64,000 bases of DNA from Cladosporium halotolerans (GCF_011745625.1 NW_027191487.1:1-64000); one strand, 5' to 3'; counted from the first letter of the stretch, positions 38,446 to 47,580 are shown. Made by a program: numbers and translations. The notes: generated by a model from the sequence alone, not told the origin.

Positions 38446-39915
38446 ATGACGACCATGGTGCGTGCACACCCTCCCTCCCACACGCGACCGCACCCGCCGT
38501 GCACCGCAATATCATACACACGCATACACAACCAAGGATAGCCCACTGACAGCATGCAGGACCTCCGCGTGGGCAACAAGTACCGCATTGGCCGCAAGAT
38601 CGGTAGCGGCAGTTTCGGCGACATCTACCTTGGTAGGACCACACCAGCGAGCACTCACAGCACCGCCCAGACTGACCCTCCGCGCAGGCACCAACATCAT
38701 CTCCGGTGAGGAGATCGCCATCAAGCTTGAGTCCGTCAAGGCCAAGCACCCTCAGCTCGAGTATGAGGCTCGCGTCTACAAGTCCCTCGCCGGCGGCGTT
38801 GGCATTCCCTTCGTCAGATGGTTCGGCACCGAGTGCGACTACAATGCCATGGTCCTCGACCTGCTCGGCCCTTCCCTCGAGGACCTCTTCAACTTCTGCA
38901 ACCGCAAATTCTCCCTCAAGACCGTCCTCCTGCTCGCCGACCAGCTCATCAGCCGCATCGAGTACATCCACGCCAAGAGCTTCATTCACCGCGACATCAA
39001 GCCCGACAACTTCCTCATGGGCATTGGCAAGAGAGGCAACCAGGTCAACGTGATCGATTTCGGTCTGGCCAAGAAGTACAGGGACCCCAAGACCCACTTC
39101 CACATTCCCTACCGTGAGAACAAGAACCTGACGGGTACCGCTCGTTACGCCTCCATCAACACCCACTTGGGTGTCGGTAAGTCTTCACTGCATCGAGACA
39201 GCAAGTTTGAGCAAATCTCGCTAACACTTCACCCGCAGAGCAGTCTCGCCGTGATGACATGGAGTCTCTTGGTTATGTCATGCTTTACTTCTGCCGTGGC
39301 AGCCTTCCTTGGCAGGGCCTTAAGGCGGCTACCAAGAAGCAGAAGTACGACCGCATCATGGAGAAGAAGATGACCACCCCCACCGAGGTTCTTTGCCGTG
39401 GCTTCCCCAACGAGTTCGCCATCTATCTCAACTACACCCGCTCTCTTCGTTTCGACGACAAGCCGGACTACTCCTACCTCCGCAAGATCTTCCGTGATCT
39501 CTTCGTTCGCGAGGGCTTCCAGTACGACTACGTCTTCGACTGGACTGTGTACAAGTACCAGAAGAACGCTCAGGCGATTGCTCAGCAGAACCAGCAGGGT
39601 CAGGTCGCTGGAGACGACGGCGACGACAAGACTGGTGCTCGTCGCACCAACCAGGCTACCGCTGGTCAGACTGCCGGCCTCACGGACAAGCGTCGCGGCC
39701 CTGTCAACCCGAGAGCCGAGGGCACCGGAATGTGAGTTGCCGAAAGCACCAGACTCTGCCCTTCTCCGCTCTTGTAAGCCCCTTCCTCTCTGCGTTCGAA
39801 CGTTGCTTTGGCGCGAGGGGACAAAGAAGACTTTCGCTAACGACCGCTTCCCCTCTGCAGGCAACTTCGTTCCAGCAAGCGCGGTGCTGATCAGCCTGGC
39901 TACAACGGTTACTGA
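38446..39915 (+). CDS. HRR25: Casein kinase I (Hrr25/Hhp1/CK-1a type), 5 exons
   Basis: [75 protein letters not shown] and EQSRRDD. The last intron is 39732-39860. Confidence 0.95.
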
Positions 39916-41199
39916 ATGAGCCTATGATCAAGGGCAGGGTTGCTGGCATCGGCTCGCACACCTCTGACATTCAACTCAACTTTGGCGGCTCATCCCGCTC
40001 GATGTTTCGGCACGTCTCCTAGACGGCCGGACGTCAAATCAACTTTCATATCGGTATCGACTGCGTAATACATGGCTGAGGCTCGTTCTTCGTTCGACCG
40101 CTCGCAGCTCAAAGAAACGACTACAATCGCGGATGCTCTCCTGTTGGACTTGACTGGAGAACTCCGACAACATTACGACTTGTATCGTGCAGCAGCGGCA
40201 ACGACGAGCTCAACAGCATGATTGAGCAGCATCCTGGCGTGTCACTCGGCAGGGCTTTCGGTTTACGATTTCTTCACGGACATCAAACTGGATTCATCTG
40301 CAGGCCACCTGGGCCAAACCGAGACATGTTTGCTTGTTCAGGCTTTCCTTGCGCAAGTATCGATTGCAACAAAAATAACAAAATCCAAAAAAAAAAAAAA
40401 AGGTCATCCCGGGGCGGAAGCACACACACTGGACATTGAGCAACACGGATTGGAATTCTCGGCTTCTGATTCGTCTTTCCTCCCGAGATTGCAACACTTG
40501 TGATCCTGATGGTGCTTCTCTTCTATGGTGGCACGATTGTGCACGCCTGGGGAGGCAGTCGCGTCAATGAAAACTTGACGTCGGCTAGAGCAGTGGATGC
40601 AAACAGACTGGAAACGAAGATGCAAGAGCGTTTCGCGAGGACGACGGACTCGACGAAATGGCTGGTCGGCACTAAATTGTAGTGGTTTTGCTTTTGTGTT
40701 GGTTTTCTTTGGCTTTCTTTCTTTTCTCTTCTCCTGCCTGCTTGGTATCTTGCTTCTATGCTAGGATGTCTGGTAGTTTTTCTTAATGCAAACATGTTGC
40801 TCAAAACTTGCTGAATTGTGGTGACGACTAGATCATCCACTGGGCAGACTGTCAGCAACGACGACAAAGCCATACCGGCAGGAAAGCTACCTCATGCGCA
40901 CCAGTGAGGTAAGGTCACTGGGATCCACATCTTTCCGCATCCACCATGCCTCATCTGGCAAATCACATTGTTGCAATTCGATGGCATTTGCATGGCAGTT
41001 CACGACAGCCATGACTAGTTTGACTTTACCAATCGTCTGGACCTGCCAACCGTCTGACTTGTCGGATTACGCAGCGTATGGTTTTTGGCCATGTCTTGAA
41101 AATGTGGACGTACATTCGCGCCTCGTAGCAGTCGTGACATTTGCAATCGACACCCTACGCAACGCTCAGCTTGTACCGAGGTAGTAGTTTTGATCGTTC

Positions 41200-41822
41200 A
41201 CCTAGACCTTCAACCGACAAGATATCAAGCACTTCACCCTGCCCCAAAAACGACCAATGCACAATCTGCAAAACAGAGACCGGTCTCAACAAATGCCAAA
41301 GCTGCCTCATGACCTTTTCCCGTGGCCGGTAGCACCAAAAAGCCCACTGGCCCCGGAGTGCAAGGTCGCCAAAACAAGCAACGAAAGCCTCTGAGACTCA
41401 ATTGACGACGTCAAGCTCAGCCTCCAACAGAGCCCGCGTGCTCAATGACCTTCGCGTGATGAACGATGCGGATGAGTTCTTGGGAGGCAAAATGCCCGCA
41501 GAGTTGTTTAATCAGGTCCGATCGTACAAGATCGTGCCCGCGAAGGCGCTGGATCCAGGCCGGGTCAAAGCGATTGAGGGAAGATCTCAGCACGTTTCAG
41601 GGGCAGATTGAGAGGGAGCTGCAGCAGCTGAAAGACCGCATGAGTGCGCTGAACGAGGATAACCGATCTGCCATAGCGGATCCGGAGAGGAGCAAAGCGA
41701 GGTATCAGCCTGAGGTGCCGATTGTGGAGTTGTTGGCGCAAATGTATAAAGCGTGGGCGGAGACGCCCGGAGCGTTGGAGGTTTGGAAGGTGTTGTGCAA
41801 GGGCAGAGAGGATGTTGATTAG
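41200..41822 (+). pseudogene. Degenerate MYND zinc-finger protein
   Basis: CTIC..KCQSC..FSRGR*HQKAHWP, then a frameshift to ECK. There is an in-frame TAG at 41330-41332 and no ATG. A C-terminal fragment, YKAWAETPGA, lies in another frame. Confidence 0.6.
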
Positions 41823-41908
41823 AGTGGCCGGATTTGATCTGAGGATATATGCCGCCTGCAATACTCCCATGTGGCATTGTGCTGGGCGAGCATACTTCTG
41901 AGTGAGAA

Positions 41909-44413
41909 CTAGCCAGGGGTCCGGCTTCGACTCCGTGATGGGAGCAATTTCGCGAACAGACCGCCCTGGAGATACCGTGACTTCAACGATCTCCGCTCTG
42001 CTGTGGAAGCTTCTGGCGGGCGTGTTGGAGTCTGCAAATCCGCATTGGCTGTTTCCAATAGCGAAACGGCATCTTCAGCATGTATCTGCAACATCCGTGC
42101 CTTTAGACATCGACACTCTTGCACCCGCCTGCCTCCACAGCAATAATCGCCAACAAGCTCTTGAATAGCTTCCAATGCCGTGTATGATATTAATATACGC
42201 CGAACGCGCATGGTGCTACATTTGTGCAGATCTGGGGCCTTTCGAGCGAACAGCCCTAGGAGGCGGAGAGCTGCAGCTGTTCTGTCCATTTTTGTTCCAG
42301 GAATCCACGGCGTCAATTGTGATGATTTTGGTCGTTCGACAATCTCCTTCAAAAGAATACTCCAAGGACACCACTCGCCGCAAAAATGCGCAGGATCCGC
42401 ACCATTTTCGAGCAATATTGTCGGGGTACCCGTGTAGTCGTCTGGAATGATGAAAGGGCCAGATTCCGGGAGTGCGTAAGGTAACGTTGCGAAGAGCAGT
42501 AAGAGCGACATGTTCTCTGCGCCCGAGATCTCACGCTTCCGGATGGCCTCTTTGAGATAGAGCGTTCCATCCATGAACACTGCTAACGCAAGCAGGCCAT
42601 TCTTCGGTTCCGTAATGCTGGCGGCAATGCCGCCGAACATTCTGAAACCGTCTGCGTTTGACCAATGCGGGTTTACGTTTTTCGAGACTCTGCCGACTGT
42701 GGGATTCTCCTTTGCCATGATCCGATCAAAAGTCTCGACCAAGCTGCTTCTATGCTCACCAGAAGAGCGTTCTGCGAGCTTATTGAAGCGGAAGAAAGCT
42801 TGCACCAAGCTGGCTTTGGGGAATATAGATATGAAGCGCCTGCGACCACAGATAAGGCCTGCCATGATCGCTGTGTTGACTTCGAACGCCTCGCCGGCCT
42901 CTGGCTTCAATAGAGACTTCTCCCGGGATTCTTGGTTAAGATAGTCGAACAATGATCGATGTAAAAAGTTCACCCGAGACTCATCGCATTCGAGAAGCCC
43001 ATGGCATCTTCGAATCACCCGATCTTGGAAGTTCATGCCGGTAGCCTCGCGCTTTGACAGATCGGATGTCGCGAGCTCACAAGCTATTCCATAGCTAGAA
43101 GCCTCCTGTGCCGCAACCATAACATCGGCAAGCATGGGCCTGCTGTCCAAGCTGGCCACACACTGTCGTGCAATGAGGAGATACCTGAAAGCCTCTTGTC
43201 TGTAACGCTCTTCGATTCGCTCCATCAGAATGTGATTGAACATCTCATTGAGCTCCCGCGGTAGGAGCATGATTCGGTCGTGTATTGCTAAGGGCTCTTC
43301 GTGATCATTCACGCCATCGAGGGTCAGCCTGACGACAAGAGCGACCCACAAGAAGACACCGTGCGCATTGTCGATGATAAAGTTAGCGATTTCTTTGATC
43401 CCGTCTCGCTCATGGTCGAAGATGTCTCTCAAGCGTGGGTTTGCCGATAATTCCGTGTCGACGTATTCACGAATGTCGGGCTTCGTCAGAGTTTCTAAGC
43501 AAAGTGACCGGCAACTTCGAAATGCTGTCTTGAAATGTGCTTCGGGACGGCTGGATATCACCCATTTGACTCTGGATGAGTCCGCCATATCCAGCATCAA
43601 CCACGCAAGGTCGGCTTTCCCCATACTGTCACTTTCATACTCGTCCATGCCGTCTACGACGAATAAAAATCTGGTGCCCGTTTCTTCATAACGGAGGACT
43701 TCACGCATCGCAGCGGTCACCCTCTCCATCGTAGGCTCCCTTGCTCTGAACCTAGATTGCCAGCGTGGAAATGCGATGCGGCACAGCGAACTGTCCGCTT
43801 CGAGTATGTGCAACAGCAATGTTCGATATAGCCCGAGTAAAGAGCGCTGTAGTCGCGATCCAGCGGCCCAAAACCAGAAAGGTGCGATTACCAGTCTTGT
43901 ATTATCAGCCCAGTCCTTGGAAAGATGTTCGAGCATAGAGCTTCGATTCCCATTCGGATCCTCCGGACCATTTTCTTGCGTGATGAACTTCATCAACGTA
44001 GATTTTCCCGAGGCAGGTTTGCCATTGATCCAGAAAATCCCCTTGCCGTCACGCAGCCAATCAACGAAGCCCAGGTCATTGTCTTCCTCAAATATCCATT
44101 TGAAGGTCGTTCCATGAGCTTTGGGGACTTGCTCACGCCGGTCCTCAATCTCCGCGAACGTCAGCCATTCAAGCAACGCCTTGATCCAGACCTTCTCCTC
44201 ACTCTCTTGACTCGCTTCGCCATCTGTCTCCCGCGGATAATTGTGAATCACATCTGGAACAAAGCGTCAGTAACAGAGACCCCACTGCTTCGCGAGCCGA
44301 CTGAGACCCTGTAGAACACTCATACTGTAGTTATCACCAGCGTGCACTCTGGCACTGTCACTGGCGTGGATGTGTGCCCAGCGCTTCCAGGCTGGTGGAT
44401 CTTTGTCAGGCAT
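41909..44413 (-). CDS. NACHT-domain NLR-like protein with N-terminal HET-s-like amyloid motif; 2 exons
   Basis: Exon 1 is 44413-44326. Intron 44325-44254 (GTATGA..CTGAC..CAG) is in frame with the 780-aa ORF. Motifs: AHGTTFKWIF, Walker A FWINGKPASGKSTLMK, Walker B FLFVVDGMDE, WVISSRP, AHGVFLWVALV and VNFLHRS. Confidence 0.9.
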
Positions 44414-45093
44414 AATGTCGCGGTGACCAGCAATGGACAGACAGTGAGCCCAAATATAGTCTCGGCTTCAGCCTGCCCACGGACGCAGACTGTACGCACA
44501 ATGTCATGCTACGGTGAACAACCGCTATGGAAACCAGCCTGAGCTGAATTGGCAGCTCTTGTACCAGCGCCCCGCTCAGCAGAGTGGCGTCTGCACATGC
44601 ATGGCGTGAGGTCTGGGCTTGATTCGAGGCACTTGCATTGTGACTATCGCCGCTGGGTAAAACTCTTTTTTAGCAACGACCTACATGCTCGTATTGCAAT
44701 TGTCGTGCTGGTTTCAAACCGGGCATTGACTGTGTATTTGGGTGAACCGGAAGAGCCAGCTATGGCAGCATTGCTCTCATATGTATGCGACCTTTCTGGC
44801 TGCCGGAGCAACGCTGTCGCTGGAGTGAGAGCATTTTAGCATCATGCAGTAGGTCATCGAAGGCATTAGCATGCCGTCCCACCGTGAAGTGAGGCCGCCG
44901 CTCGCCACCCTCTAAAGCTCGCCGCTCAGCCAATCACAGCGCAGGAATTCTACGTTATTGGAGAGATCTACTTCTAGCCGCCCATCCCGACTTTCTCAGA
45001 ACGCTTAACACCACTTCTAATTTTCCTTTGCGTTTGTTTTGCTAACTTGAGTCTGAGAGGAGGATTTTCTCGGCTCCAAGGGCCAACTCAAGA

Positions 45094-47580
45094 ATGCTAT
45101 CGCGTTCGTTTGCCCGCTCCGCATGCGCCTCCTGCCGCTTGCGCCAATCCATCGCCGCCAAACAGCTTGCGAGGACAAGACTGCCAGTCCAAACGCAGGC
45201 CCAGGCACGAGTACATACACAGGGCTCTAGAGCATTCTCCGCGACTGCCAATGTGCAAGTACGAGATCGCAGTAGGAGGCCTGCGGCGAGGAATGCCACC
45301 CGGAGAGTAGAAGAGGAAGAGCAATTAGAGCAAGATGAGGATGTGGATACAAGTCTGTCAGCGGAAGCCGAGAGGTTGGGTATATCCGATGAGCAAGCAC
45401 GGCTGTCGAAGCTGCTGTACCTTTCAAGTTTGAAGGTCGGCATGAGCACTGAGCGGCTGGTGGATCTGGTCGGCGAACTACAGAAAGAGACTTTGACAGC
45501 TCAGCAGCGCGCTCTGGAGGTGCGAAATGCATTTGGGGATGTGTTGCCCGAGGGTCTGCTTGGCGATGAGGAAGAGAAGATCTACTTGATGTTGTATGGG
45601 GAACCGCGAGAGAGGCTGTTGGAGCAGGATTTGGAGGCTTTAGAGGAGGAGGTTGCGGGAGAGTTGGAGGCTGCGGAGGAGGAGGCATTGGAAGAGGAAG
45701 GCACGGGCGTGGCAAAGAGAGGGCCAGATGGGCAATTCGAAGAGGTGGAATTTGAGGACGATGAAGCGTTGGTTGAAGAAGAGGTGGAGGACGACGAAGA
45801 GATTGGTCTGGAGGATGCGGATGCGAGACTGGCTGAGGATATGCGTGAAGCGGCAGAAAGGGGAGAAGATGGTGTAGAGGTGGAGGAAGGAGAAGAGAGC
45901 GATCCGACTCTGCGCGCACATCCGTTGACCGCTGAAGGACGATTTTCTACATCGCCTTCGAGCGTTCAGCTGCCTAAAGACAGCTTCGTGGATCCTATTC
46001 AGCAACTCATTTCCGGCACGCCACCTGTCCATCTAAAGGACTCGGCACACATGGCTTTTGGCGGCATTGGCCTACCTTACAGTACCTCGACTCCATCTTT
46101 GGCGAAAACGATGCAGCAGAAGCCGATGCCTTTCGATGCGACTCAGGGCAGAATGGCCGATATCGATGCGAACATCTTTCTTGCAGTTCTCATGCCAGCC
46201 ATGTATGCTACGACAATGAGCGCTCTCGTAGAATCGAGGAAACGCTTAGGAACTGCCTGGGCAGAGAGCTTGGTCCGCAAAGCCGAAGCTGGAGACTTGA
46301 AAATCTTGGATGCGGGAGGTGCAGGTGCCGGTGTTATGGCCGTCCGCGATATGCTCAAGGCTGAGTGGCAGCGCATGCACGAAGATGATCTGGAGACCAG
46401 CTCTAACACTGGTGTGGCGGAGGCCAGTGGTAAGACCGGCGGAGAATCGTTACAAGCGCCGCTTGGTAATGCTACGGTCCTCACAGGATCTGATGCGTTG
46501 AGAAGGCGCTCCTCCGCTCTTTTGGAAAACACTACATTCATCCCGCGCCTTCCCGATTATTTCCACACCGAGACTGCGAAGGAGACTGGAAAATTCGACC
46601 TGGTCATCGCACCCCACAACCTGTTTTCCATTCGGGAGGATTGGGCTCGCAAGAACCACGTCGACAACCTCTGGTCGCTTGTCAGCGCAGAGGGTGGCCT
46701 GTTGGTCATGCTGGAGAAAGGCATTGCTCGTGGATTCGAAGCCATCGCGCTGGCTCGTGAGCACATTCTGAACACGTACATCGCCTCCCCCAGCACAGAA
46801 GAGACAGCCGAAGACACCGAAGAAGGGGACATCATGTGGGAGGAGGGCGAGGAACCTCTTAGAGAGACAGGTATGATCGTTGCTCCCTGCACTAATCACA
46901 CCGCTTGTCCCATGTACTCCGGCAAGAACAAGGGCGTGATCAAGGGCCGCAAGGACATCTGCCACTTCGAGCAACGCTACACTCGCCCGCCGTTCCTACA
47001 AAAGATCTTGAACGCGAGGGACAAGAACTTCGAAGATGTCAAGTTCTCCTATGTAGCGCTCATGCGTGGCCGCGATCTCCGCATCCCGGCAACAGAGCGC
47101 ACCGATCCCAACTTTGAGAAACAAGCGACGGTCGTTCAGGGCGAGGAAGCCACCGACCGCGCCTTTGCAGGCTACGAGAACCTCGACCTGGCTTCCGGAC
47201 CCAATCTATCGTCTCTATCTCTGCCTCGCCAGATCCTCCATCCGCTGAAGCGCCGTGGCCACGTCATTCTCGACCTGTGCACCCCGGCGGGCAGCTTGGA
47301 GCGCTGGACCGTGCCGCGAAGCTTCAGCAAGCGTGCCTTCCGCGACGCACGAAAGAGCTCTTGGGGCGACCTCTGGGCTTTGGGCGCGAAGACTCGTGTT
47401 ATGAGGACGGCGAGGGTCGGCGACAAGAAGCGAGATCGCAAGGCGGAGAAGGAGAGCGAGGACGAGAAGCCTGAAAGGAGGACGCTCAGCAAGCGGATGG
47501 CAAAGGAGAAGAGGAGAGTCAAGGAGCGGAAGGCGGGGAAGAAAGGTAGATTGCTGAAGGGAGAGATTGAGGTCGACTAG
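45094..47580 (+). CDS. RSM22: Mitoribosomal small-subunit factor Rsm22/METTL17 (methyltransferase-like)
   Basis: Arg/Ser-rich mitochondrial presequence. Motifs: ILDAGGAGAG, LEKGIARGFEAIALAR, IVAPCTNHTACP, ICHFEQRY, KRRGHVILDLCT and RDARKSSWGDLW. Confidence 0.92.
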   Translation: MLSRSFARSACASCRLRQSIAAKQLARTRLPVQTQAQARVHTQGSRAFSATANVQVRDRSRRPAARNATRRVEEEEQLEQDEDVDTSLSAEAERLGISDEQARLSKLLYLSSLKVGMSTERLVDLVGELQKETLTAQQRALEVRNAFGDVLPEGLLGDEEEKIYLMLYGEPRERLLEQDLEALEEEVAGELEAAEEEALEEEGTGVAKRGPDGQFEEVEFEDDEALVEEEVEDDEEIGLEDADARLAEDMREAAERGEDGVEVEEGEESDPTLRAHPLTAEGRFSTSPSSVQLPKDSFVDPIQQLISGTPPVHLKDSAHMAFGGIGLPYSTSTPSLAKTMQQKPMPFDATQGRMADIDANIFLAVLMPAMYATTMSALVESRKRLGTAWAESLVRKAEAGDLKILDAGGAGAGVMAVRDMLKAEWQRMHEDDLETSSNTGVAEASGKTGGESLQAPLGNATVLTGSDALRRRSSALLENTTFIPRLPDYFHTETAKETGKFDLVIAPHNLFSIREDWARKNHVDNLWSLVSAEGGLLVMLEKGIARGFEAIALAREHILNTYIASPSTEETAEDTEEGDIMWEEGEEPLRETGMIVAPCTNHTACPMYSGKNKGVIKGRKDICHFEQRYTRPPFLQKILNARDKNFEDVKFSYVALMRGRDLRIPATERTDPNFEKQATVVQGEEATDRAFAGYENLDLASGPNLSSLSLPRQILHPLKRRGHVILDLCTPAGSLERWTVPRSFSKRAFRDARKSSWGDLWALGAKTRVMRTARVGDKKRDRKAEKESEDEKPERRTLSKRMAKEKRRVKERKAGKKGRLLKGEIEVD

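Follow-up and report, generated by a model that had tools for sequence, protein, structure and literature searches.

A two-exon NACHT receptor gene of Cladosporium halotolerans with a predicted HET-s-related r0 motif at its N-terminus

The closest described system to the gene examined here is NWD2/HET-S of Podospora anserina, in which the NOD-like receptor (NLR) NWD2 carries one HET-s-type motif a few residues from its N-terminus, then a NACHT domain and WD40 repeats. The HET-s-related amyloid motif (HRAM) was defined, and r0 motifs of NLRs were printed, by Daskalov, Dyrka and Saupe in 2015 (PMC4518210); a second source used here is Wojciechowski et al. 2022 (PMC9815663). The published HRAM rules comprise a perfectly conserved glycine at position 19, hydrophobic residues at positions 5, 8, 10, 16 and 18 and a preference for R or K at position 15, and NLR r0 copies hold fewer D, E and K and more S and H residues (PMC4518210). 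HRAM subfamilies have been published by the residue at position 3 (N, Q or H) or by Q at positions 16/18 (PMC4518210), and HRAMs in NLR N-termini were reported at 'positions 5-9' (PMC9815663). We analysed 64 kb of Cladosporium halotolerans (GCF_011745625.1 NW_027191487.1:1-64000; the window hereafter), which encodes a NACHT protein on its minus strand. The reading that we favour, with moderate confidence, is that the gene has two exons and encodes an 810-residue NACHT NLR, the first 35 residues of which carry one HRAM r0 that would template an effector encoded elsewhere. There is good support for placing the protein among the NLRs that bear a HET-s-related r0 motif.

The spliced product begins with MPDKDPPAWKRWAHIHASDSARVHAGDNYNVIHNY, and its motif begins at residue 8, within the 'positions 5-9' given in PMC9815663. 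In register with the HRAM rules, G26 corresponds to position 19 and R22 to position 15, both invariant in 9/9 aligned sequences, while W12, I15, A17, V23 and A25 occupy the hydrophobic positions 5, 8, 10, 16 and 18; positions 16 and 18 vary in orthologs, with Q, N or S in some. The composition of the motif (three H, two S and few charges) is in line with the r0 trend. Identities over residues 8-28 were counted by eye against the supplement columns of PMC4518210. The core (..IHA...ARVH.G..) shared 8/21 residues with the r0 listed beside P. anserina HET-S (the NWD2 side), 9/21 with a Fusarium r0 and 8/21 with a Cladosporium fulvum r0, and 5/21 and 3/21 with HET-s r1 and r2, respectively. By sequence, the r0 motifs of NLRs are the better comparison than HET-s r1/r2. 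Our first-pass annotation, made from the DNA alone, had aligned the peptide to two HET-s segments, and both agree with the 2RNM sequence given in the same supplement.

Comparison with r0 motifs of Capnodiales in the supplement columns (Baudoinia compniacensis and C. fulvum; PMC4518210) revealed the same pattern, [AS]-S/D-G/D-x-[AS]-R/H-x-H-x-G-[ND], at the same position in the NLR. Those NLRs adjoin their effectors; the C. halotolerans NLR does not. It also differs from the NWD2/HET-S system in having no WD40 repeats, no adjacent HET-S/HeLo gene and K instead of N at position 3. Searches of the two motif catalogues gave no mention of this gene or species: the word 'Cladosporium' is absent from the main text of PMC9815663 and from both supplement files of PMC4518210, and C. 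fulvum is entered ('Clafu') in only two rows of supplement file 2.

To score the motif with a profile free of NLR sequences, we built a hidden Markov model (HMM) from 46 C-terminal repeats of 23 HeLo proteins (4 plus 19 further relatives); P0198 was excluded from the set, its C-terminus holding no repeat. This HeLo-repeat HMM gave the N-terminus 18.8 bits and kept the glycine in register (profile positions 9-22 on residues 16-29), and all nine other NLR N-termini that were tried also scored (11.7-27.4 bits). Of the 1838 pieces obtained by six-frame translation of the window, that of exon 1 ranked first with 19.6 bits (E 6.9e-5), the runner-up reaching 4.9 bits. When residues 1-40 were shuffled, 0/5000 shuffles reached the real score (20.5 bits vs 9.7 for the best shuffle). 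The motif is far above chance.

A second profile, built on the NLR side from nine motif-bearing sequences, was used in an exhaustive search over 1.84 billion protein representatives and retrieved 51 proteins at E<=1e-3. Six of these were NLRs, three of them seeds, and four were HeLo-domain proteins with two C-terminal copies (P0141, P0149, P0165 and P0170; Pfam HeLo 41-146 bits). The others were four ULD_2 proteins (P0122, P0124, P0137 and P0167; one a seed), five ankyrin proteins (P0123, P0138, P0159, P0161 and P0162; the motif is N-terminal in four, plus the seed P0123), two DUF6590 proteins (P0164 and P0166), one protein with PF17108 only, one without a family and with two internal copies (P0140), one unrelated repeat protein (P0134) and 27 short pieces without a domain. 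A word-indexed search with the motif alignment gave eight matches, six of them seeds. The motif flavour thus occurs, as judged from these sequences, as paired C-terminal repeats of HeLo proteins, the defining trait of HRAMs. The Zymoseptoria tritici protein MYCGRDRAFT_95227 (P0171/P0141, 'HeLo domain-containing protein') is an example: its repeats ...ARAHNGDNY and ...SRTHLGNNY match the motif profile with a library-wide E of 2.8e-5. With two C-terminal copies behind a HeLo domain it stands on the effector side; it belongs to another species, and no pairing with the present NLR is implied.

Some matches of this search are of a different kind. P0134 (458 residues, E 7e-6) has seven 'KDHLGN.Y' repeats together with phage- or bacterial-type Pfam matches and was set aside as a false positive; it illustrates that the motif can be mimicked by short G-N-x-Y repeats. 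The R-x-H-x-G motif heads the ankyrin and DUF6590 proteins and precedes ULD_2, in proteins that are neither NLR NTPases nor classical effectors, and in P0123 a Q/N-rich repeat lies between the motif and the ankyrin repeats. These ankyrin, ULD_2 and DUF6590 proteins may stem from gene calls that were cut short, or they may take part in amyloid signalling as partners that have so far gone unrecognised.

The N-terminal motif was found in 6 of the 120 listed relatives (P0004, P0013, P0018, P0024, P0038 and P0090), among them all four close NCBI gene models, which are from Cladosporium inversicolor, C. fusiforme (two) and Venturia nashicola; P0038 and P0090 are two more distant NLRs. The V. nashicola model carries the source name 'small s protein'. 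R15, H17 and G19 (motif numbering) are invariant in the nine sequences that were aligned, and the close orthologs also retain the tail NV..NY. The motif is therefore conserved in Cladosporium and Venturia orthologs, a property whose absence the first-pass annotation had named as grounds for rejecting its proposal. Five relatives known from open reading frame (ORF) calls show DV[TI][NH][NH][YH] where read-through of the window gives DVIHNY, a sequence hint that these five share the intron phase. P0018 (C. fusiforme, 1074 residues) combines the r0 motif and NACHT with C-terminal ADH_zinc_N and ADH_zinc_N_2 domains and probably represents two merged gene models.

The motif lies largely on a small first exon (Table 1). 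In the table-1 ORF list the gene starts at GTG 44251 and has 780 residues (41909..44251, minus strand), a start that had also been read from the ORF track in the first-pass annotation. Direct reading of the sequence places the ATG at 44413-44411, and exon 1 escapes the ORF track because read-through of intron 1 meets an in-frame TGA. Exon 1 encodes MPDKDPPAWKRWAHIHASDSARVHAGDNY and the first base of the N30 codon. A scripted join of the two exons gave 2433 nt in phase, with a single terminal stop and an 810-residue product. We also compared contigs from four runs, the kinds of which are only guessed and none of which is on record as RNA. A contig of run X2 (3277 nt, depth 136, about 94% identical, with 143 differences over 2351 bases) aligned to 41903-44253 and 44326-44500, and its sole joint omits exactly 44254-44325, with CT..AC borders on the plus strand corresponding to GT..AG on the gene strand. 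It extends about 170 bases upstream of the ATG and 663 bases beyond 41903, as a transcript would. Intron 1 was retained in a contig of run X1. It is thus a close relative, and not C. halotolerans itself, that shows the splice junction. The scripted join and the X2 contig agree with the earlier proposal of an 88-nt ATG exon and a clean 72-nt intron in the correct phase.

The same exon was, however, described as hidden in that proposal, which does not stand. The spliced product is identical at every letter, N-terminus included, to P0175, the 810-residue NCBI/UniRef entry 'hypothetical protein WHR41_08019 [Cladosporium halotolerans]' / 'NACHT domain-containing protein'; the exon is therefore not hidden. 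Exon 1 is already part of public eukaryote-style annotation, and only the motif is without a name. The accompanying statement that automated annotation could miss such a receptor holds for prokaryote-style ORF calls on contigs, which lose the exon, and for the motif, which is unannotated, but not for the NCBI model, which has the exon. The closest database protein, P0002 (91% identical), is an ORF call beginning inside exon 2, and P0175 sits in its cluster. Ten relatives from contig ORF calls (P0008, P0010, P0011, P0012, P0014, P0015, P0016, P0020, P0022 and P0025) start at MFAEIDDR, and exon 1 has therefore been lost from those calls.

Pfam analysis of the protein placed PF24883 (NPHP3_N, 69.9 bits) on residues 79-265 and PF05729 (NACHT, 29.4 bits) on residues 134-300. 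A DUF7791 region follows, as is common behind fungal NACHT domains. The last ~310 residues had no Pfam match at E<=1, WD40 families included. A protein atlas gave weak ankyrin/HEAT-like leads for this C-terminal region (ankyrin-cluster feature scores of 0.79-0.86; structure TM of 0.31-0.41), which is probably a helical repeat and not WD40. The architecture is thus motif-NACHT-DUF7791-(helical?), compared with NACHT-WD40 in NWD2. An N-terminal HET-s-like motif ahead of a NACHT domain, as first proposed, is borne out by the HRAM rules and, for the NACHT domain, by Pfam; the label 'NWD2-type' applies to the NACHT behind the motif and, with no WD40 by Pfam, not in the strict sense.

Table 1. Features of the NACHT receptor gene and its flanks; coordinates are counted from the first letter of the window.
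Feature	Position	Strand	Details
5' untranslated leader	44414..44500	-	at least 87 nt; covered by the spliced X2 contig; no ATG seen on reading
Exon 1	44326..44413	-	88 nt = 29 codons (ATG included) + 1 base; linked with exon 2 by the X2 contig
Core 21-residue HRAM-type r0 motif (by sequence)	44330..44392	-	residues 8-28, AWKRWAHIHASDSARVHAGDN
Intron 1	44254..44325	-	72 nt, phase 1, GT..AG; GTATGA...TACTGAC...CAG; branch A 13 nt before the 3' end
Motif tail on exon 2	44237..44253	-	(N)VIHNY, residues 30-35; NV[VIT].[HN]NY in orthologs
Exon 2	41909..44253	-	2345 nt; remaining coding sequence to TAG 41911-41909
NACHT-type NTPase domain	43442..44107	-	residues 79-300 of 810; P-loop GKPASGKS
DUF7791 region	42848..43219	-	residues 375-498; PF25053, 40.5 bits
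C-terminal region	41912..42847	-	residues 499-810; without Pfam repeat family
Protein kinase gene, split by intron	38450-39735	+	flanking gene
Mitochondrial Rsm22-like methyltransferase gene	45094-47580	+	flanking gene, divergent from the NLR

Several results concerning the motif, the transcript and the partner weigh against the reading of the gene as an NLR whose r0 templates an effector encoded elsewhere. Position 3, which is N, Q or H in the published subfamilies, holds K in this protein and varies among its orthologs (Q, H or G), so that the motif is left without a subfamily. The curated 23-position model PF17108 aligned its positions 9-22 to residues 17-30 (E 1.8e-4). Its scores of 21.8 bits for residues 1-50, 17.6 bits for the full-length protein and 20.4 bits for exon 1 by itself are all below the gathering cut-off of 24.3 bits. 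The N-terminal 45-46 residues of three orthologs had no PF17108 match at E<=10, and Pfam scans of whole orthologs had no PF17108 match. PF11558 (HET-s_218-289) had no match in the protein, which is expected of a single repeat, and phmmer of exon 1 against PDB sequences gave 0 matches at E<=10, for a peptide too short to inform. The HeLo proteins were found with profiles that contain this exon and are biased towards this motif flavour. Scoring against HET-s and HRAM profiles, the check first suggested for this N-terminus, had a divided outcome: 18.8-20.5 bits with the HeLo-repeat HMM, PF17108 under its cut-off and PF11558 silent.

A different account is one in which the first exon encodes a conserved N-terminal peptide of another function, such as binding or targeting, and its likeness to HET-s is superficial. 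The PF17108 score below the Pfam cut-off fits such a peptide, as do the ankyrin, ULD_2 and DUF6590 proteins (5, 4 and 2 of 51) that the same motif heads without being NLRs or classical effectors, and the amyloid assignment is itself drawn from sequence. We nevertheless regard this account as quite improbable: all six HRAM position rules hold in register, a profile made of HeLo repeats only finds the motif with 0/5000 shuffles as good, and the published r0 motifs of NLRs adjoining HeLo genes in Baudoinia and C. fulvum are of the same type.

As for the transcript, the spliced contig comes from a relative and the RNA nature of run X2 is a guess. No run on record as RNA covers the stretch, and the long ORF can open at GTG 44251, both of which would suit a gene that lacks exon 1 and is translated from inside the long ORF. 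Such a start is, in our estimate, extremely improbable. One contig joins the exons exactly at the predicted GT..AG, and the first in-frame ATG of the long ORF falls beyond the P-loop (GKPASGKSTLM). The DV[TI][NH][NH][YH] sequence of the five ORF-called relatives is what the same intron phase predicts, and the motif is present in 4/4 close eukaryote-style gene models.

The search for a partner of the favoured r0-bearing NLR gave the remaining contrary results. Three motif-specific regular expressions and two profiles revealed no second copy of the motif in the 64 kb. Regular-expression matches at 47574 and 49923, from the two loosest patterns, were unrelated and were dismissed. The window has 184 ORFs with a length of 110 residues or more; a Pfam scan of 43 of them, namely all of about 200 residues or more and all adjoining the gene, found no HeLo, SesA, PNP_UDP or patatin domain. 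The matching effector of an NLR/effector pair was accordingly not found within the 64-kb window to which the search extended. A word-indexed search with the HeLo profile returned 22 proteins, none named from C. halotolerans; only the 8000 top shared-word candidates were scored, and this search is therefore no evidence of absence.

The genes on either side (Table 1) are of housekeeping types; NLR genes, by contrast, often lie in variable surroundings that are rich in effectors. The ~2 kb between the kinase gene and the 3' end of the NLR gene (39900-41900) contain only short ORFs without Pfam matches, with a T-rich run near 40390-40405. The 663 bases of the X2 contig past 41903 run into this interval, which suggests a long 3' untranslated region or a convergent transcript.

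As a positive control, the HeLo-repeat profile was run on 16 metagenome loci around HeLo genes. At L006 it found an r0 on a NACHT-WD40 gene divergent to the HeLo gene, a canonical HET-S homolog (PF11558, 75.8 bits). L005 has the same arrangement, with the r0 on a NACHT-WD40 gene and a HeLo gene in divergent orientation to it. The r0-like motif of L005 (L005:7165-7296, minus strand) lies on a small first exon that ends at GTAAGT a few codons past the motif, a layout resembling that of the C. halotolerans gene. At L004, a canonical HET-S homolog (L004:2195-3208, plus strand; HeLo and PF11558, 72.4 bits) adjoins a divergent r0-like exon (L004:1859-2251, minus strand) in which W replaces the conserved glycine (..SSRVQIWNSY..); behind this exon is a CrcB-like gene, not an NLR. 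The L004 r0-like exon looks like a decayed NLR partner.

Together with the lack of a partner within 64 kb, the decay of NLR/effector pairs seen at L004 speaks for the possibility that the C. halotolerans motif is a true HRAM by descent whose effector partner is gone, leaving a relic or a stabiliser of the NLR's own oligomer. Published data add that NLR-side motifs outnumber effector-side motifs by a mean of 5.7:1 for one HRAM class and that the HRAM-like class NLR40 is without effector matches (PMC9815663). Such an orphan state is nonetheless unlikely, if worth serious consideration. R15, H17 and G19 and the hydrophobic pattern have persisted in Cladosporium and Venturia orthologs whose overall identity is only 37-45%, which argues for selection on the motif, and related Dothideomycetes do possess HeLo proteins whose double repeats match (P0141, Z. 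tritici). In the published set of PMC4518210, 98/155 HeLo-type effectors neighbour an NLR with an r0, so that unlinked NLR/effector pairs are common. Unlinked cases are likewise suspected in PMC9815663, where NLR-side motifs can outnumber effector-side ones.

Under the favoured reading, an r0-bearing NLR with an unlinked effector, the mechanism would be analogous to that of NWD2/HET-S. A ligand would cause the NACHT protein to oligomerise, its N-terminal motifs would thereby be gathered, and these would fold into a beta-solenoid-like amyloid nucleus. On this nucleus as template, the r1/r2 repeat pair with which a cell-death effector ends would adopt the same fold; the effector, most likely a pore former of the HeLo-domain type, would have its gene elsewhere in the genome. 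The analogy would thus predict amyloid formation, an effector of this identity and a role in immunity or cell death.

The r0 could also belong to a wider amyloid-templating network, in which one NLR templates several unlinked partners of new kinds or proteins without a nucleotide-binding oligomerisation domain feed the same effector. The occurrence of the same motif at the head of ankyrin-only, ULD_2 and DUF6590 proteins, and a conserved WD40-less NACHT lineage with an unlinked effector, led us to this idea, which we consider distinctly unlikely.

As one more NLR in a class that is already well described, the gene introduces no new principle; hundreds of such NLR N-termini have been catalogued (PMC4518210, PMC9815663). 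It adds a conserved Dothideomycete NACHT lineage, known from Cladosporium and Venturia, to the fungal NLRs with a HET-s-type motif. The curated Pfam model misses this lineage, and such receptors consequently keep the label 'hypothetical protein'. The gains are better annotation of these receptors and a gene that can be put to the test as a candidate member of an unlinked NLR/effector amyloid pair.

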